Shown here in pieces: positions 1,606 through 11,235 of a stretch of DNA of 64,000 bases. A model generated the notes under the pieces. That model saw only the letters and a list, made by a program, of their open reading frames with translations, did not search any database and was not told the DNA's origin. The translations under genes and the position numbers were made by a program. The stretch spans positions 66,460 to 130,459 of the forward strand of contig CACMQN010000002.1 in the NCBI GenBank assembly GCA_902615855.1, in the 5' to 3' direction. The stretch's first letter is position 1. Every line of letters begins with the position of its first letter. Source of the DNA: an uncultured Candidatus Actinomarina sp. (GTDB taxonomy: Bacteria; Actinomycetota; Acidimicrobiia; Actinomarinales; Actinomarinaceae).

Positions 1606-2556
1606 TTAACCAGTTGACTCCACAGCCTCTGTAGTGACTTCTTCATCTGTTTCTAGAAGTCCACAGTCTTCGAGTACTTCGTCAGTGTTTCCGCCACCAA
1701 ATACAACTCTCTCAAAAACCACAACCGCGTAAATCTCATCTTCAGTAAGTTTTCCTGCAAATCCAGGCATTCCACCTATTGATACTTTATTCTCTGCTCC
1801 ATACGCCGGTCCAACTTCGGCCTGCCAACCTGCAGAGCCTAATTCAATCCACAATGCATGATCACTACAAGTTGGAAAAGTTGTATAAAGTTCTCCACCA
1901 GTAAAGGCAGGACCTACTCCTCCACCACCATTTACTCCATGACAACCAGCACATGCAGCAGCTCCAGAATAAACTTGTTGTCCAAGGGCAATATAATTTA
2001 TTGAGCTTGCAGATCCAACACCTTTTCCTTCAAATGCTGATCCATCACAGTTCACAGTTAATTGAGTTTTTCGATCAACATCTAAAATTCCACTCTCCCC
2101 ACATTCTTGTGTGGATGATGTATTGACTATCCCAATAACAATAAAAAGGGGAATAAGTACAAAGCTAAAATTTAGCCATCTCGGCAAAGATGTTTCAGCA
2201 TTTACCTTTATATCCAACGTCTTATTTGCGAAGGATACTTTTTGTATAATTTTTTTAATATTTGCTTGAGAAGATACTACAGATGAACTTTCCTTTTCAT
2301 CTTTTACAATTTCTGCAGACTCTTCTTTGGATTCTTCTATATCAGCTTTGTCTTCAACAGGTGGCGCCGGTTCTTCAGCAGGAGGTGCTTCTTCAGCAGG
2401 TTTTTCTGCAGAAGCTACACTCTCACCTCCAGCCCATGATTGTAAAACTTCATCAACTGTTCTTCCAGAAGCTTCAGCTCTAGCTTCAGCAGATCGTTGC
2501 ACCAACGACTCTGGTGCATTTAATAATTCAGCAACTTTACTTAAGAGTTCACTCAT
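1606..2556 (-). CDS. Membrane-anchored monoheme cytochrome c with the duplicated N-terminal module
   Basis: CAGCH heme motif, GGGGVGPAF, distal MPGF, one TM helix. N-terminus is nearly identical to that of the 2549..3361 gene. Confidence 0.85.
   Translation of the reverse strand: MSELLSKVAELLNAPESLVQRSAEARAEASGRTVDEVLQSWAGGESVASAEKPAEEAPPAEEPAPPVEDKADIEESKEESAEIVKDEKESSSVVSSQANIKKIIQKVSFANKTLDIKVNAETSLPRWLNFSFVLIPLFIVIGIVNTSSTQECGESGILDVDRKTQLTVNCDGSAFEGKGVGSASSINYIALGQQVYSGAAACAGCHGVNGGGGVGPAFTGGELYTTFPTCSDHALWIELGSAGWQAEVGPAYGAENKVSIGGMPGFAGKLTEDEIYAVVVFERVVFGGGNTDEVLEDCGLLETDEEVTTEAVESTG
2359..2556. repeat. 198-bp direct repeat, copy 1 (5' end of the cytochrome c gene)
   Basis: Matches 3164..3361 at offset 805 with two mismatches (2365/3170 and 2549/3354). 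Confidence 0.95.
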
Positions 2557-3361
2557 TTGTACTTCCTAAAGATAATAAATAAGTTATTAAATAATCTAAA
2601 TCTTGATTACTTAGGAAATTTACTGATGGATGAGGTATATCTTCCTTTACAGAAGATGGATCAATTAAATACTCTTTTAGCCAATCTGCATCGTTTGTTG
2701 GTTCTCTTGTTCCAAGAGTTGATAAATCGGGAGCTAACCTCAAAAGGCCTGTATTTTGAATGAGGTTTTTATTGGCAAATCTATTTTTTAATATTTTTCC
2801 ATTTTGTGAATCAGGTATGAGAATTCTTACATTCTGTGTATGACAGGACTGACAATTTAATTGGTTATAGACAATTGCTCCATTTAATATTTCTTCACTT
2901 ACCCGAACAGAATTATTTAATGATTGTAAGACCACCTCTTCACTTTGTTGTTTTGGTATTGAGAAAGCAAATAGGTATGTAAATATAACTACTCCAATCA
3001 CACCAGCAATAAAACCTAGAGAGCTTTCTTTCTTTATTTCAATGTTTTCTTCTTCAATTAAAACCTCTGTAGACATTTCAGAAATAGTTTCTTCAACTAC
3101 AATTGATAAATCTTCTGTTGATTCCTCTTCTTCCTCATCTGATGTAGTTACAGGTTCATCCGTAGGTGGTGCCGGTTCTTCAGCAGGAGGTGCTTCTTCA
3201 GCAGGTTTTTCTGCAGAAGCTACACTCTCACCTCCAGCCCATGATTGTAAAACTTCATCAACTGTTCTTCCAGAAGCTTCAGCTCTAGCTTCAGCAGATC
3301 GTTGCACCAACGACTCTGGTGCATTTAATAATTCAGCAACTTTACTTAAGAGTGCACTCAT
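2549..3361 (-). CDS. CcoO/FixO-like (cbb3 oxidase subunit II) cytochrome c, divergent
   Basis: GAIVY..CQSCHTQNVR...RLAPDLSTLG...DW...YLIDP resembles the CcoO pattern G..IY..GC..CHSQ.IR...R.GPDL..VG...DW...HL..P. Confidence 0.8.
   Translation of the reverse strand: MSALLSKVAELLNAPESLVQRSAEARAEASGRTVDEVLQSWAGGESVASAEKPAEEAPPAEEPAPPTDEPVTTSDEEEEESTEDLSIVVEETISEMSTEVLIEEENIEIKKESSLGFIAGVIGVVIFTYLFAFSIPKQQSEEVVLQSLNNSVRVSEEILNGAIVYNQLNCQSCHTQNVRILIPDSQNGKILKNRFANKNLIQNTGLLRLAPDLSTLGTREPTNDADWLKEYLIDPSSVKEDIPHPSVNFLSNQDLDYLITYLLSLGSTNE
3164..3361. repeat. 198-bp direct repeat, copy 2 (5' end of the CcoO-like gene)
   Basis: Matches 2359..2556 with two mismatches. Confidence 0.95.
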
Positions 3362-4761
3362 ACTGGAAGCTCCTCTTCAGTAAGTTCAATTGTTTCTGCT
3401 TCTGTAATTTCTCCATTTACTATCGCCTTGACGACTGAAATGAAAAACAACAGAAATGGCAGAAGTAATGTCAAAGATAAAAACATATTTAGCGTTAAAG
3501 GAGTACTGATTAGTGACCACAATAAACCGAACCCTTCACCATAGATTGTTGGGTTTCCTGCATTGGCACCAGCATTCCATGAGTAACCAGAAATAATTCC
3601 GATTAAAGCATTAGAAAATAATGTTAAAGACACCACAAGTTTTAATAGAAAACTAGTTAAAGATTCAAGCCTTGAAAATTTAACTTCTCTTCCAAAGATT
3701 TTAGGAATCAAATAATAAACAAATGAGATAGTAATTAATATTGCACTGAAAACATACCCATATCTAATTGCTATCTCAAAATTTGTAAGACTCAATATAG
3801 GAATGATATTTGAGAGCGAGGACACTATTTGAAAGATATTTGTTATAACAAATATTCCAAACGAGAAACTTATAAGACTATAAATAACTTTATTCTCGTC
3901 AATTCTCGTTGAAACCGTTCTGAAGAAATTTACAGCTATAGCAAGCACTGGGAGAGACAAACTTATAGACAAGTAAAGAGATATATTTTCTATCCAATTT
4001 GGCAATACAGAACCAAAGTAAAATTTAAAATTTGACCAAGGAATGAGAAACAAGAATCCCCAAAATCCAATAGATCCCAATGTTTTACTGTACAACGTAG
4101 CATTTATACCTTTTGTAATCATGAAATGAAGTAATGATAGAAATACGAACGAATATCCAACATATATATGTGTTGAAACATACATTGAATTAATGAAAAA
4201 ATTGTCGCTAAATACGACAAAATCAGCTCTATAAATTAGAAGTGATATCAAATAAAAAATACTTGCACCAAAAAGATACTGACTACTAACAAAGAGAGAA
4301 GCTTCTTTTTTGGCCAATATATTTAGAATAACGAGTCCAACAAAGGCAAAAAATATTAAGATTTTAAAAATTAATGTATAACTAGTGTTCCCAAAGAACA
4401 AAAAACTATCAGGAAATAATATTCCTAATAATAGATCGAGTGACTCCAATCCGATAACTCCCAATGCAGTTAGAAAAAAAATTGGGAATATTATTAATTT
4501 TCTTCCAAGTGTTTTTGGTAATAAGTAAACAGTCAAAAACACAATTAAAAATGAAAGCATCAGATTGTAAGTTATATGGTTATTTAGTTTTTCTAAATAT
4601 CCACTATTGAGAAAACTATTTTGAGGGAGTATGGCTGCAAAAATGAAATAAGCTTCTTTTGTTAATGCAACAGTTCCTAAAAGAAGGAAAAAAAGTGGAG
4701 TTAAAACAATAAAAAATTTTGAAAACGCTTGTTCATTTTTTGGAAAAATTTTTATTCTCAT
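3358..4761 (-). CDS. CcoN-like heme-copper oxidase subunit I homolog lacking the metal-ligand histidines
   Basis: About 12 TM helices. LYSKTLGSIGFWGFLFLIPW...LPNW and YYLIPKIFGRE align by eye with CcoN YS.RL...HFW.....W..PHH....LPDW and YYL.PKL.GRE. Lies directly upstream of the CcoO-like gene. Confidence 0.65.
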   Translation of the reverse strand: MRIKIFPKNEQAFSKFFIVLTPLFFLLLGTVALTKEAYFIFAAILPQNSFLNSGYLEKLNNHITYNLMLSFLIVFLTVYLLPKTLGRKLIIFPIFFLTALGVIGLESLDLLLGILFPDSFLFFGNTSYTLIFKILIFFAFVGLVILNILAKKEASLFVSSQYLFGASIFYLISLLIYRADFVVFSDNFFINSMYVSTHIYVGYSFVFLSLLHFMITKGINATLYSKTLGSIGFWGFLFLIPWSNFKFYFGSVLPNWIENISLYLSISLSLPVLAIAVNFFRTVSTRIDENKVIYSLISFSFGIFVITNIFQIVSSLSNIIPILSLTNFEIAIRYGYVFSAILITISFVYYLIPKIFGREVKFSRLESLTSFLLKLVVSLTLFSNALIGIISGYSWNAGANAGNPTIYGEGFGLLWSLISTPLTLNMFLSLTLLLPFLLFFISVVKAIVNGEITEAETIELTEEELPV

Positions 4762-4930: not shown

Positions 4931-5524
4931 TTGTTAAATTTTATATTTATTAACCGATACAAAATCGGAGTTGCTTTAATTTTTGCTGGAGTAGGTGGCA
5001 TAACAATTGGAGTAATTATTGCACATTTCGCTGGATTTCCAGAAGGCGAAGTAATCGATTATTTTAATTGGATGCCTAGGGGCTGGCTAATGCAAACCAT
5101 TGGACAACTCATTGCTTTTGGTGCAGGTCAATTTCTATTGATTGGAATGGCAATGCTTGCATGGCAAGATTCTGAATTAACTTGGGCTAGAGCAACATAT
5201 CTGGCATTTCTCAGTTGGATACAATTTGCACTTATATTTGGTGTATTACCTTCTGAGTGGTTAAACCTTTCTCAAGGACCTCTTGAATGGACAAACCAAA
5301 GAGAGTTTATCAACTTTCCTCCAATTTTATTTTTAGGTAACGAAATAGGAATGAGCCTCGGAGCTCTGAAAGACATTATTCAACTTGGTATATCAGGTGG
5401 AGCATTAGTGACAGCTTTTGTAGTAGGATATCTAATTCAAGATATCAACGAAGCAAAAGAAAGAGGAAAAACTAGAGTTTCTGATTACGGAAAACAAGTC
5501 GTGAAGGTAGGTGCTGATGGCTAA
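4931..5524 (+). CDS. Uncharacterised 4-TM membrane protein, first gene of the Rieske/cytochrome b operon
   Basis: Hydrophobic ORF with TTG start after GAGGG; overlaps the ferredoxin gene. Confidence 0.7.
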   Translation: MLNFIFINRYKIGVALIFAGVGGITIGVIIAHFAGFPEGEVIDYFNWMPRGWLMQTIGQLIAFGAGQFLLIGMAMLAWQDSELTWARATYLAFLSWIQFALIFGVLPSEWLNLSQGPLEWTNQREFINFPPILFLGNEIGMSLGALKDIIQLGISGGALVTAFVVGYLIQDINEAKERGKTRVSDYGKQVVKVGADG

Positions 5525-5966
5525 ATCAGAAGTACTTATTGAAATGCCTGAATTTGAAAAAAAATACAATTTAGCCATGGTCGAAGCCGAAAAGGTTTCT
5601 TCAAGGGTAAGGCCAAAACAGTTTTTGCATATTGATGAGGCAGAGTGCATTTTATGTGAAGGATGTGTAGATATCTGTCCATGGAAATGTATACATTACT
5701 TATCAACAGAAGCAATAGAAGACTCTATAAACGTTGAAGCTCCTAACATGGAAGATAATGAAACGGGATTCTTTGTTGTTGATGAAGAAGCTTGTACAAG
5801 ATGTGCATTATGTGTTGATAGGTGCCCAACAGGGGTTATATCGCTTGGTAAGTTTGCTGGATCATTAGCAGATGCGGCAATAAAGAATGGTGTTTATGAA
5901 TCTCCATGGGATGAAGACTCAGGAGAGAGAAGTGACCGTCATGGCTATATATATGGAAGACTTTAA
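5517..5966 (+). CDS. 2x[4Fe-4S] dicluster ferredoxin
   Basis: CILCEGCVDICP and CTRCALCVDRCP motifs. ATG 5517 preferred over GTG 5511. Confidence 0.9.
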   Translation: MAKSEVLIEMPEFEKKYNLAMVEAEKVSSRVRPKQFLHIDEAECILCEGCVDICPWKCIHYLSTEAIEDSINVEAPNMEDNETGFFVVDEEACTRCALCVDRCPTGVISLGKFAGSLADAAIKNGVYESPWDEDSGERSDRHGYIYGRL

Positions 5967-6745
5967 TGAAAAACGAAAAAATTAAATTTAGAGATCGATT
6001 AAAAGATATTAGTTCAGGTCTCGGAGAGTCTTTAAAAGAAAGTACGCTTTGGGGAAGTATTTTTAGACCAGGATCTCCATTTAGAAAAGGTTATTCAGAT
6101 AGTCCAAGAAATAGATCATATGTTGTAATGAATAACGTCTTGTATCATCTCCATCCAGTAAAAGTAAAAAGACATGGTGTCAGATTGTCATATACGCTTT
6201 GCTTGGGAGGATTAAGCTTCTTTACATTTATTGTTTTGACTATAACTGGTATTTGGTTGATGTTTTATTTTAGACCTACAGAAATGGCATATGTTGATAT
6301 TCAATCATTACAGACAAGTATTGCGTTTGGATCTCTAGTTAGAAATATGCACAGGTGGGCTGCGCACATTATGGTGTTAGTAGTGTTTCTTCACATGTCC
6401 CGAGTTTTTTATCATGGGGCGTACAAAGCACCTAGAGAGTTTAACTGGGTGATTGGAGTTATATTACTACTTTTAACACTCCTTCTTTCATTTACTGGTT
6501 ATCTACTTCCATGGGATCAGTTAGCTATTTGGGCTGTGACAGTGGGTGGAAATATGGCAGGTTATACTCCCGTTTTTGGTGCTCAAGTTAAGTTTGCGTT
6601 ATTTGCAGGACTAGAGGCTACTGAAGCAACACTTCTTCGATTTTATGTTTTACATGTTCTATTTTTTCCTTTCATCATTGTAATTTTTATGGCAATTCAT
6701 TTTTGGCGAGTAAGAAAGGATGGAGGAATCTCAGGTCCTCTATAG
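5966..6745 (+). CDS. qcrB: Cytochrome b N-terminal subunit (cytochrome b6-like, split)
   Basis: YTLCLGG, RNMHRWAAH, VFLHMSRVF, PREFNW, FTGYLLPWDQ, RFYVLHV, IHFWRVRKDGGISGPL C-terminus. Confidence 0.92.
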   Translation: MKNEKIKFRDRLKDISSGLGESLKESTLWGSIFRPGSPFRKGYSDSPRNRSYVVMNNVLYHLHPVKVKRHGVRLSYTLCLGGLSFFTFIVLTITGIWLMFYFRPTEMAYVDIQSLQTSIAFGSLVRNMHRWAAHIMVLVVFLHMSRVFYHGAYKAPREFNWVIGVILLLLTLLLSFTGYLLPWDQLAIWAVTVGGNMAGYTPVFGAQVKFALFAGLEATEATLLRFYVLHVLFFPFIIVIFMAIHFWRVRKDGGISGPL

Positions 6746-6752
6746 ACATACT

Positions 6753-7577
6753 ATGGTTGATATTCCAGAACATTTATTATTAAAAACTGCTGAAGCAAGA
6801 GCCAAGGCCTTAGGTATTTCAGTTGAACAAGCACTGGCAGAAATGAGAGGTGAAGCTGAGCCTACCAAAATTGAGAAAGAACCAGATGTTATTGAAGTTA
6901 CTCAAATTGAAGTAGAAGTCAAAGAAACACCGGCACCAGCAGCTGAAGTCAAAGAAACACCGGCACCAGCAGCTGTAGTAAAAGAAGCACCGGCTCCTGC
7001 ACCTGAAAAATCAAACGGACAAGTACCTACTGAAGTAGATTTTGCACCTGAGACAAAAGTAACACAAAGGTTGCTTACGGTCGTCAAAGCAAAGCCAATA
7101 CAGAAACCAACTTCTGAACCAGTTGATAAAGTAAACACATGGCCTCATTTAATGTTGCCAGAGTTTATTTCATTAATGGCAATGACAGCATTTTTGATTT
7201 TTATAAGTGCAATTTTGCAAGCTCCTTTATTAGAAGAAGCAAATCCAAACATTACACCAAACCCTGCAAAAGCACCATGGTACTTTTTAGGACTACAAGA
7301 ATTACTTTCCTATTGGGATCCACAGATCGCAGGTGTGATGATACCTCTTCTAATTGGTGTTGCAGCATTTATGGCAATTCCATATATTGATCGAAATAAA
7401 GAAAATAAACCTTCAAAAAGAAAATATGCAATAATGTTGTGGACCTTTTTTCTGGCAGGTGCTGGAACTTTAAGTCTTATCGGTATTTTATTTAGAGGCC
7501 CAGGTTGGAACTGGACGTATCCATGGATTGATGGTGTATGGTTCGATGACTTACTTGACTGGGTCCATTTCGAATGA
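6753..7577 (+). CDS. Rieske/cytochrome b complex subunit IV (PetD-like) with N-terminal extension
   Basis: WPHL...PLLEEANPNITPNPAKAPWYFLGLQELL (PEWY-equivalent) and PYIDR. ATG 6753 follows the cytochrome b stop. Confidence 0.88.
   Translation: MVDIPEHLLLKTAEARAKALGISVEQALAEMRGEAEPTKIEKEPDVIEVTQIEVEVKETPAPAAEVKETPAPAAVVKEAPAPAPEKSNGQVPTEVDFAPETKVTQRLLTVVKAKPIQKPTSEPVDKVNTWPHLMLPEFISLMAMTAFLIFISAILQAPLLEEANPNITPNPAKAPWYFLGLQELLSYWDPQIAGVMIPLLIGVAAFMAIPYIDRNKENKPSKRKYAIMLWTFFLAGAGTLSLIGILFRGPGWNWTYPWIDGVWFDDLLDWVHFE
6915..7004 (+). repeat. 30-bp in-frame tandem repeat (EVKETPAPAA x2 plus a degenerate third unit)
   Basis: gaagtcaaagaaacaccggcaccagcagct occurs exactly twice, followed by a diverged copy. 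Confidence 0.9.
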
Positions 7578-8452
7578 CTCTTGTTGAGCTTTCATTTATT
7601 GCAATTGCATTTATTGGCGTATTTGGTGTGATTGGAATTGCAGCTGTAGTAACTGGAAGAACCCCAAAAGCTGTAACAAAAAGATTAAATTGGAAAAAGA
7701 ATTTAGATAAAAAAGCTTTAAAAGTTGATAAATCTCAAACAAATTTTTTAGCTCCAGATGAACCAGATTTTGAAGAAGAAAACGTATCTGAAGATAATGA
7801 ACAAGATGAAGAAGAAATTCAAACCGATGGATCCATTGCAATAAAAGAAGAAATAATTTATGAAGAAATTTCAGAAGAAGAAGCTGGAATGACTCGTAGA
7901 CAATTTTTGGGTAAAGCCCTTGGAATCACGTTTGGAGCATTTGCTGGTATCCAATTAATTTCTTGGCTTGGATTCTTTTATCCAAAAGTTTCCGGAGGTT
8001 TTGGATCTAAAATAGATGCTGGAAGAGTTGATGACCTTAAAGACCAAATTTTCCAATCAGACGGTTCAGTTATACCTGCATTCATTCCAGAAGCAAGAGC
8101 TTATGTTTTACCATTTGATGACAATGGTAACTCTCAGTTTTCTGATAGTGGAACTATTGCAGACGGTTTAGTTGCTGTTTATCAACGATGCGTTCATTTA
8201 GGTTGTCGTGTTCCATGGTGCAACACCTCTCAAGGATTTGAATGTCCATGTCATGGTTCAAAATACAACATGGTTGGTGAGTATTACGCAGGTCCTGCTC
8301 CAAGGAACTTAGATAGGTTTATTGTAAGTGTTTCAGGAGGAAAATTAATTATCGACACAGGATCAGTTATAGAATCACCTCGAGCTGATGGTATGTCTGT
8401 GAAATATCCACAAGGTCTTTCATGTATTACAATCGCTGAGACTGAGGAATAA
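7574..8452 (+). CDS. qcrA: Rieske [2Fe-2S] subunit
   Basis: CVHLGC and CPCHGSKY boxes, GPAPRNL, internal TRRQFL twin-arginine motif. Confidence 0.93.
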   Translation: MTLVELSFIAIAFIGVFGVIGIAAVVTGRTPKAVTKRLNWKKNLDKKALKVDKSQTNFLAPDEPDFEEENVSEDNEQDEEEIQTDGSIAIKEEIIYEEISEEEAGMTRRQFLGKALGITFGAFAGIQLISWLGFFYPKVSGGFGSKIDAGRVDDLKDQIFQSDGSVIPAFIPEARAYVLPFDDNGNSQFSDSGTIADGLVAVYQRCVHLGCRVPWCNTSQGFECPCHGSKYNMVGEYYAGPAPRNLDRFIVSVSGGKLIIDTGSVIESPRADGMSVKYPQGLSCITIAETEE

Positions 8453-8454
8453 AT

Positions 8455-9879
8455 ATGAACAGCTCGTTTTTCATAACATTAATCGCCTTAGCAGTAGTTG
8501 GTGCAATTGCTTATTTTTCTGCAGTTGGTTTCCGTGGTGCAGGAAAAATCAAAAAAGTACCTAGAAATTTACAAAAATATCTTCCAGATGATGAATTAGA
8601 AACTACTCATCTTGATAAAACATTATCAATAGCAGTTGTGCTAGCTTCGTTACTTACAATTATGATTCCACTTTATTATCTCGGCGAACCAGCTAGACAA
8701 GAAAGTTTTGTAGAAGAGTTTGATGACGTTTCAGTTGAAAGAGGGCACCATCTTTACGAAGAGTTTGGGTGCGGAAACTGCCATGGAGTAGATGGAAGTG
8801 GTGGAGCTGCTTCATATGTTGAAAAAAGAAGTGGTGTAAGTGTTACATGGTCAGCCCCTGCAATAAACAATGTGTTTTATAGATATGATGATGAAGAAGT
8901 TAGGTATTGGCTAATATACGGTAGAGCAAACTCACCTATGCCAGCTTGGGGTCTAAAAGGCGGAGGCCCAATGAACGATGGACAGCTTGACGACTTGATA
9001 GAGTACTTGCATTATTTTCAAATTCCACAAAATGAAGAACTTCAACAAATTGAACAAAATATAAACTCATCTTTGCTACGAATTGAAAATTCTGATTTAC
9101 AGGTTGAAAGTGAAATTGAAAAACAAAATGACCTTATCAATGACATTAAGGCAGCTCCAGAAAGATTACCCGTAGCAATTGAAGCCGTTGAAATTGTATC
9201 TGCGATACTAGCAAGGCAGAATGGAATCGATACTGATGAAGACGGGCTTTTTGATTCAGTAGAAACAGATATATCAGCTTATAGTGAAAGTGTTGCAGAT
9301 GTTTTGGGTACTGCAATTTTAAATCTAAATCCAGATGAAGAAGAATCAACTCCAGGAAGAAAAGACGCATCAGTTGTTAGGGGATACCTTTCTGATCTTG
9401 AAACGAGTGTTATTAATTTAGGAATCCTTACTGATGGCTATGACAAATTTATGGATGAAGCTGAAAAAGGTTTAGCATTTCTTGAAAATGCCTATGAACA
9501 AAAATTATGGCTTATTGATTTCCAAAACATTGCTGATTCAACCTTTGATGGAGACTATGATAAAGCAACAAGAGCAGTAGGAATATTTAATGCATATTGT
9601 GCGAGGTGTCACACTGCTGGTTATTCTGCAGGAGCTGCATATACAAAAATCATTGGTTCTGGAGGCTTGGGGCCTGCATTAAAAGGTGGACGAGTAAATA
9701 TTCAATTTAAAGAGAGAGCCGACTTTGTTGATTTTATTATTAACGGTTCTGTCAATGGTAAAGGCTATGGAGTCAATGGAGTCGGTGGAGGAAAAATGCC
9801 AGGATTTGGTGCGGTACTTCCACAGTCAGATATAGAATTGGTTATAGATTATTTGAGAGGAATGACACCTGATGCGTGA
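8455..9879 (+). CDS. Membrane-anchored diheme cytochrome c
   Basis: CGNCH...MPAW and CARCH...MPGF; two N-terminal TM helices. Confidence 0.88.
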   Translation: MNSSFFITLIALAVVGAIAYFSAVGFRGAGKIKKVPRNLQKYLPDDELETTHLDKTLSIAVVLASLLTIMIPLYYLGEPARQESFVEEFDDVSVERGHHLYEEFGCGNCHGVDGSGGAASYVEKRSGVSVTWSAPAINNVFYRYDDEEVRYWLIYGRANSPMPAWGLKGGGPMNDGQLDDLIEYLHYFQIPQNEELQQIEQNINSSLLRIENSDLQVESEIEKQNDLINDIKAAPERLPVAIEAVEIVSAILARQNGIDTDEDGLFDSVETDISAYSESVADVLGTAILNLNPDEEESTPGRKDASVVRGYLSDLETSVINLGILTDGYDKFMDEAEKGLAFLENAYEQKLWLIDFQNIADSTFDGDYDKATRAVGIFNAYCARCHTAGYSAGAAYTKIIGSGGLGPALKGGRVNIQFKERADFVDFIINGSVNGKGYGVNGVGGGKMPGFGAVLPQSDIELVIDYLRGMTPDA

Positions 9880-10240
9880 AATAATGAGAACCCTTTTGTC
9901 ATCTAATTTGACATTTACTGGAATTTTCCTTTTTGTTTTTTTTGTTCTCTCATTTTTTGGATCAACTTTTATTTTGAACGCAACAAATTTAGGTAGAAGA
10001 CTTGGCTTCCTTGTTGTTGGAGCCGCAACTTTTGGATGGCTAGTTATTAATTCTTTTCTGTTTATACTTTATGCTCCAAGGGGTCCAGCGCCATCCTCAA
10101 TAGATGGTCTAAATGCTCTAGAAATCAGAATTATTCCAATAACTTATTTTGCTGGATCTTTAATACTTTTTATTATGTTCATGCTTGCTTTAAATAGATA
10201 CGAACAAGAAGAAAAAAACACAGAAGAAACAAATAGTTAA
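9872..10240 (+). CDS. Small 3-TM membrane protein, last gene of the operon
   Basis: Hydrophobic ORF overlapping the cytochrome c stop. Confidence 0.7.
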   Translation: MREIMRTLLSSNLTFTGIFLFVFFVLSFFGSTFILNATNLGRRLGFLVVGAATFGWLVINSFLFILYAPRGPAPSSIDGLNALEIRIIPITYFAGSLILFIMFMLALNRYEQEEKNTEETNS

Positions 10241-10281: not shown

Positions 10282-11235
10282 ATGGAATTTATAATATCAA
10301 TTGTAAGAAGCGTAATATTATTCGGCCTTCTGATCTTTATTGTATTTAGAATATTCAGAATTCTAAGACCATTCGAGAAAGGATTAGTTGAAAGATTTGG
10401 TAAGTACAACCGTGAGGCTACAGCAGGACTCAATATTGTAATACCAGGGATTGAAAAATTAATCATTGTAGATATGAGGGAACAAGTTATTGACGTTCCA
10501 CCACAAGAAGTTATTACAAAAGACAACGTCACAATTACTGTTGACGCTGTGATTTACTACGAACCTACAGATCCAAAAAAACTTGTTTATAACGTTGGAG
10601 ATTTTATTACCGCGGCTACAAAATTAGCACAAACAAATTTAAGAAATGTAGTTGGTGACCTTGAATTAGATGCTGCCTTAACCTCTAGAGAGACTATCAA
10701 TACATCTTTAAAATTGATACTAGACGAAGCAACAGATAAGTGGGGTACTAGAGTTGTGCGTGTCGAAATTCAAAGAATTGATCCACCTCAAGATGTTCAA
10801 GATGCAATGAATAAAGTTATGAAAGCTGAGAGAGACAGAAGAGCAGCTGTTACAGAAGCTGAAGGTGAAAAAAGAGCTGCAATTTTGACAGCTGAGGGCG
10901 AAAGAGAATCTCAAATTCTAAGCGCTCAAGGAGAGGCCGAGGCATTGAAACAAGTTGCGGACGCAGAAAAATATGAAAGAGTAGTTAATGCAGAAGGTGA
11001 AGCTGAAGCCATCAGACAAGTATTCAATGCAATTCACGAAGGTGACCCAACTAACGACTTAATTGCTATTAAATATCTCGAATCTTTAGAAAAAGTGGCA
11101 AATGGAAAAGCAACAAAAATATTTTTACCAGCTGATTTATCAGCAACTTTGGGAAGTATTGGTGCAATCTCAGAATTATTTAAAGATGATGATGAAAGTT
11201 CAAAAGGAAAAAAAAGCACTAAAAAAGAAAAGTAA
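10282..11235 (+). CDS. SPFH/stomatin-like (QmcA-type) protein
   Basis: [43 protein letters not shown]. Confidence 0.92.

Follow-up and report, generated by a model that had tools for sequence, protein, structure and literature searches.

A short helical tag on subunit IV, cytochromes c and other bioenergetic proteins of Candidatus Actinomarina and its class

A tagged b6-type locus

Candidatus Actinomarina is an abundant, streamlined marine bacterium. We analysed a stretch of 64,000 nucleotides (the window; C2:66460-130459) from one such genome (1.07 Mb, 33% GC), in which an entire Rieske/cytochrome b operon of the b6 type, including a ferredoxin gene (4931-10240), lies beside oppositely oriented genes for two monohaem cytochromes c. 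An earlier note on this DNA had claimed that subunit IV of the operon and both cytochromes share an N-terminal tag. The features of the locus are as follows.

1606-2556, minus strand: monohaem cytochrome c 'A' (Pfam PF00034/PF13442), with tag, linker, one membrane helix and haem domain
2359-2556, minus strand: direct repeat copy 2, 198 nt, covering the tag and the start of the linker; subject to concerted evolution
2428-2556, minus strand: long flavour of the tag on the membrane-anchored cytochrome c 'A', with three predicted helices and an invariant Trp41
2549-3361, minus strand: FixO/CcoO-like monohaem cytochrome (Pfam PF02433 slightly below cut-off), with tag, linker, one membrane helix and haem domain
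3164-3361, minus strand: direct repeat copy 1, 198 nt
3233-3361, minus strand: long flavour of the tag on the FixO/CcoO-like cytochrome c
3358-4761, minus strand: CcoN-like membrane protein, untagged, with only three His, fewer than an oxidase needs to bind its haem and copper
4931-5524, plus strand: conserved membrane protein with no named function, first gene of the Rieske/cytochrome b operon
5511-5966, plus strand: 2x[4Fe-4S] ferredoxin-like operon subunit, a candidate partner of the tag
5966-6745, plus strand: cytochrome b6-like subunit with a Cys at the haem ci position, as judged by b6f complexes
6753-7577, plus strand: cytochrome b6-type subunit IV, PetD-like (Pfam PF00032), with an APWY Qo motif at 7272 and three predicted membrane helices
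6753-6851, plus strand: N-terminal tag of subunit IV in its short flavour, made up of a core helix, a Gly and a second helix and lacking the leading helix
6852-7061, plus strand: linker of subunit IV, 70 residues, acidic and composed of Glu/Ala/Pro/Val, net charge -9
7574-10240, plus strand: rest of the operon (Rieske protein, dihaem cytochrome c and a 122-residue membrane subunit)

The host complex belongs with the split Rieske/cytochrome b complexes of the APWY clade, with which it shares the split cytochrome b and the APWY motif (PMC4122944); a passage of that source notes a split cytochrome b of this clade for an Acidimicrobiia genome, and the portion of its account that we consulted makes no mention of N-terminal tags. 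A statement in PMC7771536 has complex III missing in Ca. Actinomarinales, although the operon is present here. A SPFH/Band 7 gene follows it (10282-11235), which is not so in two distant loci that were read.

Subunit IV starts at the ATG at 6753, the same Met that begins its orthologs, and its motif spans I4 to G33 (6762-6851); the conserved part of the protein begins at 7062, after a linker whose length differs among relatives. In the cytochromes starting at 2556 and 3361 the motif comprises residues 14-43, with an extra helix ahead of it. The gap-free consensus given in the earlier note, PE.L....AEARA.A.G..V...L....G, is exact, with 13 of 29 positions identical, and a long Pro/Ala/Glu linker does separate the tag from the first membrane helix, as that note had described. 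The likeness also survives control for composition: the best ungapped BLOSUM62 score is 64, against a mean of 21, a standard deviation of 4 and a maximum of 47 in 5000 double shuffles. A profile built from 26 cytochrome-type copies only scores the subunit IV copy at 26.8 bits (E 7e-6), while the best of 5000 shuffles of that copy reaches 13.4 bits and the best reversed-genome decoy 9.5. Profile-profile comparison of the short and long flavours gives a probability of 98.6%. The copies are homologous.

The tag probably lies on the cytoplasmic side of the membrane, because it precedes the first predicted membrane helix in all three carriers, the haem motifs of the cytochromes stand downstream of that helix, Lys and Arg residues before and after it number 2:0, 2:1 and 1:0 (small counts), and a soluble oxidoreductase, described below, is tagged as well.

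Over the 198 nucleotides that encode their N-termini, the two cytochrome genes agree at 196, synonymous sites included. Among 26 low-GC loci the cytochrome tags are identical to each other over 120 nt in 17, of which 15 differ from their nearest ortholog (87-99% identity); identical copies occur in none of 18 high-GC loci. The twin tags are thus one 198-nt repeat that concerted evolution has homogenised. All three copies that had been noticed are therefore real, but only two of them are independent. An assembly artefact was considered for the twin N-termini and rejected, since 17 of 26 separate assemblies show them, each with a sequence particular to its genome. Among L085 (G011), L086 (G002) and L089 (G021) the FixO-like gene, which lies between the direct repeats, is absent in two assemblies and doubled in one, either through recombination between the repeats or through assembly collapse.

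The tag is conserved on orthologs and under purifying selection. Subunit IV is tagged in 68 of 80 loci, the remaining 12 being cut by contig ends, and over 43 orthologs the pN/pS of its tag is 0.125 compared with 0.138 for the membrane body; the two oxidoreductase tags have values of 0.14 and 0.09. These ratios largely refute the proposal that the tag has little function and has spread by recombination among repetitive linker DNA, which we regard as extremely improbable. Concerted evolution with its many identical cytochrome tags, the loss or doubling of the FixO-like gene and a drifting copy on NuoI2 (see below) would all suit such a neutral spread, but the tag is retained throughout the class and its carriers form a narrow set. 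This genome and three relatives with a tagged oxidoreductase (L230, L234, L235), all of a single clade, have Lys-Thr or Arg-Thr in place of the conserved Arg-Ser of the subunit IV tag (6783-6788), which is kept in 18 others.

Distribution and carriers of the tag

A profile of the full tag finds matches in 66 of 120 Acidimicrobiia genomes, strong ones in seven families. The weak matches represent a shorter version, a lone core helix of about 15 residues with a near-invariant P-E-x-L-L-x-R-S head, which occurs in most families of the class. A profile of this core helix alone matches 112 of the 120 genomes; of the eight others, six also have no match for subunit IV, one (G110, which has no NuoI2 match) carries a degenerate tag, and one has a different, fused cytochrome b. 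In a sample of the phylum the same profile matches 14 of 15 Acidimicrobiia and 0 of 186 other Actinomycetota. Where loci from other Acidimicrobiia families were inspected, subunit IV is tagged in 18 of 18, mostly twice, and so is cytochrome A in all 9 loci that have it. The core helix thus extends across the class, and the flanking helices, as judged by distribution rather than by a rooted tree, look as if they had been added in this genome's own branch.

Profile searches of databases recovered 4089 proteins among 8000 candidates and 462 among 1.84 billion cluster representatives. The best 120 of the 4089 comprise 89 cytochrome A proteins, 21 subunit IV proteins and 10 without an assigned type, with up to 7 copies of the tag each; 139 further proteins include 49 of four known carrier types and 90 without an assigned type, 78 of which are fragments. 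The tag is amplified in tandem: proteins carry between one and seven copies, separated by linkers of down to about 15-20 residues, on tails of 50-150 residues.

The genome under study holds three more copies outside the window, so that the tag, which the earlier note took to link respiratory proteins, does sit on respiratory carriers but extends beyond this locus and beyond membrane proteins. One copy is on a membrane protein with seven predicted helices (C4:43163-44260), the last gene of the aa3 oxidase operon, which matches no Pfam or NCBIfam family; its gene lies near cox genes in 4 of 5 relatives' loci that were checked. The other two are at both ends of a soluble enzyme, the alpha subunit of a 2-oxoacid:acceptor (ferredoxin) oxidoreductase (TIGR03710, over cut-off), whose gene is split here between contigs C10 and C7 and is whole in G024. 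The flavours are sorted by carrier in this genome, the long one being on the cytochromes and the aa3-operon protein and the short one on subunit IV and the oxidoreductase.

The oxidoreductase alpha subunit has a match in 41 of 45 genomes. Among the 30 loci examined, 9 are tagged and form one clade (support 97/94), and the other 21 are plain frames of 616-631 residues; the phylogeny indicates a single gain of the tag, in that clade. The oxidoreductase tags have about 73% DNA identity to the subunit IV tag. In the C-terminal tail of the enzyme (C7:2300-2537; also L135-L141 and L102) the tag is followed, at the very end, by another conserved element, a short Val/Thr-Glu-Arg repeat. The tag has also been copied recently onto a further carrier: in relative G015 the NuoI of a nuo cluster without E, F and G (NuoI2) bears the tag and linker of subunit IV in diverged form. 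It is tagged in one of 41 genomes of the genus, the genes of the other 40 being plain, and an N-terminal NuoI2 tag is absent from the 18 other loci of the class that were inspected. A chimera was rejected as the source of this copy, which shows many silent and coding differences from the subunit IV copy of the same genome; it was copied from subunit IV in one genome and diverged later (30 bits, drifting).

Two database proteins have the last small subunit of the operon fused to 3-7 tags, and two others (P0001, P0006) consist of 5-6 tags and apparently only a membrane anchor. All identified carriers, namely subunit IV, cytochrome A, the FixO-like cytochrome, the aa3-operon protein, the last operon subunit, the oxidoreductase alpha subunit and NuoI2, are bioenergetic or membrane-anchored.

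A short conserved motif in a terminal, exposed position on disordered tails might instead be a signal for quality-control or regulatory machinery (a protease adaptor, chaperone or kinase), by which the carriers would be co-regulated without being clustered. The motif does contain a conserved Ser, found in 38 of 46 rows, and a putative Rex-like regulator adjoins the operon in two relatives. Ala or Thr replaces this Ser in 8 of the 46 rows, however, and up to seven copies per protein, growth into a folded three-helix domain and carriers that are anchors only all fit poorly, which leaves such a signal improbable.

Predicted fold and comparison with known families

The tag is predicted to be helical. 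For the long flavour AlphaFold2 places helices at residues 3-12, 16-30 and 34-42 (pLDDT 90.9), and for the short flavour two helices are predicted, modelled by AlphaFold2 as helix-turn-helix in a relative's copies. In a model of a natural two-copy N-terminus (P0091) from a shallow alignment of 12 rows both copies are helical without confident packing (pTM 0.33), and a fold search with this model reaches a best Z of 4.0. A prediction of the long and short flavours in complex scored 0.02, which speaks neither for nor against binding.

Two features of the helix, its two conserved Arg and its gain at both ends of a soluble enzyme, would suit an amphipathic lipid-binding helix by which proteins are sorted to an anionic membrane domain and the oxidoreductase is recruited to the membrane. 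We consider this very improbable, given that the hydrophobic moment is low (0.18-0.21), that the window copies are non-basic (net charge -1 and -3), that small residues are conserved position by position and that most carriers are membrane proteins already.

Searches of Pfam, NCBIfam, PDB sequences, Foldseek, VIA and the ESM Atlas returned no family name for the tag: no Pfam family matches more than 2 of 34 tag rows, NCBIfam has no match for two window tags, and the best PDB sequence match (E 0.0086) is a partial stretch of a dehydrogenase. Its structural neighbours reach a best Z of 5.9. A search of largely open-access literature listed no paper on the tag; a supplementary alignment could show it.

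The peripheral subunit-binding domain (Pfam E3_binding) and the lipoyl arms of the E2 proteins of 2-oxoacid dehydrogenases are helical modules of about 35-45 residues on Ala/Pro/Glu linkers, of variable copy number, that organise a multi-enzyme assembly. The tag resembles them as a small helical module on linkers of this kind and in its variable copy number, but it has no Pfam or PDB sequence match to them and sits on many proteins rather than on a single core. E3_binding matches 0 of 34 rows at E up to 10 in Pfam, no E2 chain is among 15 PDB sequence matches, and the copies do not lie between the lipoyl and catalytic domains of an E2 chain, the genome's E2 gene having no tag match. Nor is the E3_binding fold among the fold-search matches, although such searches cannot exclude a shared fold.

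With ribbon-helix-helix proteins (Arc, FitA) and ANTAR domains the tag has a helix-Gly-helix geometry in common. It differs from them in having no predicted strand and no sign of nucleic-acid binding, and its scores are those of any small helical bundle. The sequence scores for ribbon-helix-helix proteins are E 0.062 (FitA-like) and E 0.19 (Arc), each in one row of 34, and the structural score is Z 3.1. The models contain helices only, with none of the N-terminal beta strand of these proteins; ahead of the Pro the short flavour has four residues, and the long flavour has a helix there. The top structural neighbours include chains of the ANTAR type (Z 4.6-5.1, rmsd 1.9-2.6, 44-45 residues aligned), below the tool's threshold for helical bundles, and no tag row matches ANTAR in Pfam. 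By the features tested the tag probably lies outside the E3_binding and ribbon-helix-helix families.

Sister modules and a proposed tethered docking helix

The same type of subunit IV occurs in 92 of 201 Actinomycetota genomes, usually beside the same ferredoxin gene. Other Actinomycetota carry on it a different helical hairpin, the sister module (67 of the 201 genomes, 0 of 15 Acidimicrobiia), which occupies the same position on the same orthologs and gives hhalign probabilities of 9.7% and 4.6% with the tag. In all five genomes examined in depth the sister module is found at the end of NuoI2. Another 25 tagged ORFs, from 22 regions picked as second matches, comprise 15 NuoI2, 3 NuoC, 4 single-helix membrane proteins and 3 without assignment, and one membrane cupredoxin (L319) has the module too. 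A soluble protein without a known family (L312:517-1641, and L320) bears it at its C-terminus and is a candidate for a further client or partner. In family f40 the one subunit IV inspected (L291) has no tail, and a third module of about 50 residues is present on NuoI2 in 4 of 4 loci (L390-L393) and, doubled, on an anchor-only protein of a signal plus one helix in 3 of 5 genomes (L403-L405). All three module types are also found on proteins that apparently consist of an anchor and tags only (P0001 and P0006; L353-L355 and L364; L403-L405). The types are mutually exclusive among lineages, each genome having one type on all its carriers. The tallies out of 201 include four unpublished genomes (G146, G190, G228, G257), on which no statement about sequence depends. 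Since the genomes share ancestry, such counts are not to be taken as statistical tests. This subunit IV type and NuoI2 occur largely in the same Actinomycetota families (92 and 89 of 201 genomes, kinship uncorrected). The proposal that the tag requires NuoI2 is not supported, as family f40 has subunit IV and NuoI2 and no such tag, although in G110 a degenerate tag goes with the lack of a NuoI2 match.

The tag is real, conserved, mobile and without a family name, and from its anatomy and carriers we infer how it might act. Our preferred reading, to which we assign a probability of roughly 0.45, is that it serves as a multivalent docking helix on a tether. The tags, on long tails that are likely flexible and cytoplasmic, would all bind a single partner in the cytoplasm, which would bring the respiratory complexes together: complex III, its cytochromes c and the aa3 oxidase, and in this lineage also the ferredoxin-linked 2-oxoacid oxidoreductase. 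A flexibly tethered docking or oligomerisation module had already been suggested in the earlier note; a docking module of this kind, putative as it is, agrees with the anatomy and with purifying selection, and also with amplification in tandem and recurrent recruitment to other bioenergetic proteins.

Several lines of evidence argue for docking. A lone helix of about 15 residues with a fixed head is too small for folding alone; selection holds the tag as tightly as it does the membrane body of subunit IV, and it constrains the oxidoreductase copies as well. Two to seven tandem copies on short linkers would gain avidity for a third party, where a simple dimer would saturate itself. All identified carriers are bioenergetic or membrane-anchored, a soluble oxidoreductase gained the tag once and NuoI2 received it from subunit IV, other Actinomycetota place different modules on the same subunit IV, NuoI2 and NuoC, and all three module types recur on anchor-only proteins. 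Contact with a partner has also been proposed, in part of PMC3144371, for the NuoC extension of the Bacillaceae 11-subunit complex I, likewise an extra tail on a cytoplasmic arm without the NADH module; the sister module is placed in the same way on NuoC and NuoI2. In sequence the tagged NuoC matches PRK07735 only at model positions 308-423, its core. Unlike that extension, the present tag is common to several complexes and a soluble enzyme.

Against docking it can be said that the gain by NuoI2 in Acidimicrobiia concerns one genome and that concerted evolution accounts for part of the likeness among copies. The untagged state of 21 of 30 oxidoreductase loci and 40 of 41 NuoI2 genes, and the tail-less subunit IV of family f40, mean that the tag is optional there.

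The finding of one module type per genome is explained equally well if the tags bind one another, the short flavour to the long or each to its own kind, with the tails acting as Velcro and no third protein needed for a loose supercomplex. In favour of this alternative, doubtful but the strongest of the rivals, each flavour keeps to its own carriers in this genome, the short form is without the helix that comes first in the predicted bundle of three, the module types exclude each other among lineages, the tag has its weak likeness to the dimerising helices of ribbon-helix-helix proteins (best E in one row of 34), and the anchor-only proteins could serve as cross-linkers. Tandem copies on short linkers would, however, be expected to pair inside one chain. 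In most families, moreover, both carriers have the same lone helix, so that a logic of two flavours is not ancestral, and the leading helix is also found on later tandem copies of some subunit IV proteins.

For a docking helix the candidate partner is a ferredoxin or a scaffold. A ferredoxin is suggested by the carriers of the short flavour (subunit IV, the oxidoreductase alpha subunit and NuoI2), which are expected to exchange electrons with ferredoxin, and by the position of subunit IV next to the operon ferredoxin and a cytochrome b with the haem ci Cys. Ferredoxin has been suggested as the electron donor of haem cn in part of PMC5600118 and of the 11-subunit complex I in part of PMC11238625. 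On the same side, part of PMC12008989 describes the sister order UBA5794 as being without 2-oxoglutarate dehydrogenase and mostly having KorAB; in the present genome, where the motif scan for that enzyme was a crude one, an E1/E2 pair lies on contig C16. The non-basic window tags do not favour electrostatic capture of an acidic ferredoxin, and no requirement for one is known in the cytochromes c, in the aa3-operon protein or in the cupredoxin carrier. A scaffold, which these cytochromes and the oxidase-operon protein call for, is as likely a partner.

Among known systems, AscF/AscG of the mycobacterial CIII-CIV supercomplex is an adaptor of Actinomycetota that couples TCA-cycle oxidation to a respiratory supercomplex, according to the portion of PMC13456599 consulted, and so a functional precedent. 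It is described there as a separate pair of TPM-fold subunits in an obligate bcc-aa3 supercomplex, whereas in the present case many carriers of a split complex of the b6 type have a small tail fused to them.

The tag presumably pays for itself, since a genome of 1 Mb has retained it, homogenised it and put it to use again. Through its carriers a plausible chain can be drawn that leads from the oxidation of 2-oxoacids to oxygen. In a wider and more tentative reading, which we think possible but rather unlikely, deep-branching Actinomycetota would use a lineage-specific 'address tag' code, its modules re-invented or diverged at least three times and copied onto enzymes that join a flexible, ferredoxin-centred respiratory hub of 2-oxoacid oxidoreductase, NADH-less complex I, b6-type complex III, cytochromes c and aa3 oxidase. 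The donor of the NADH-less complex I is a question left open in the consulted parts of PMC3144371 and PMC11238625, and a passage of PMC7771536 gives Ca. Actinomarina a truncated second complex I with an uncertain donor. If the address-tag reading is true, the partner would show by which long-sought route electrons enter the 11-subunit complex I, and the tag would offer a portable part with which enzymes could be tethered to a respiratory chain.

As a peptide of 33-45 residues the tag is a cheap bait for learning how the complexes hold together and what feeds the NADH-less complex I. The recent gain by the oxidoreductase is a natural experiment, with tagged and untagged enzymes within one genus.
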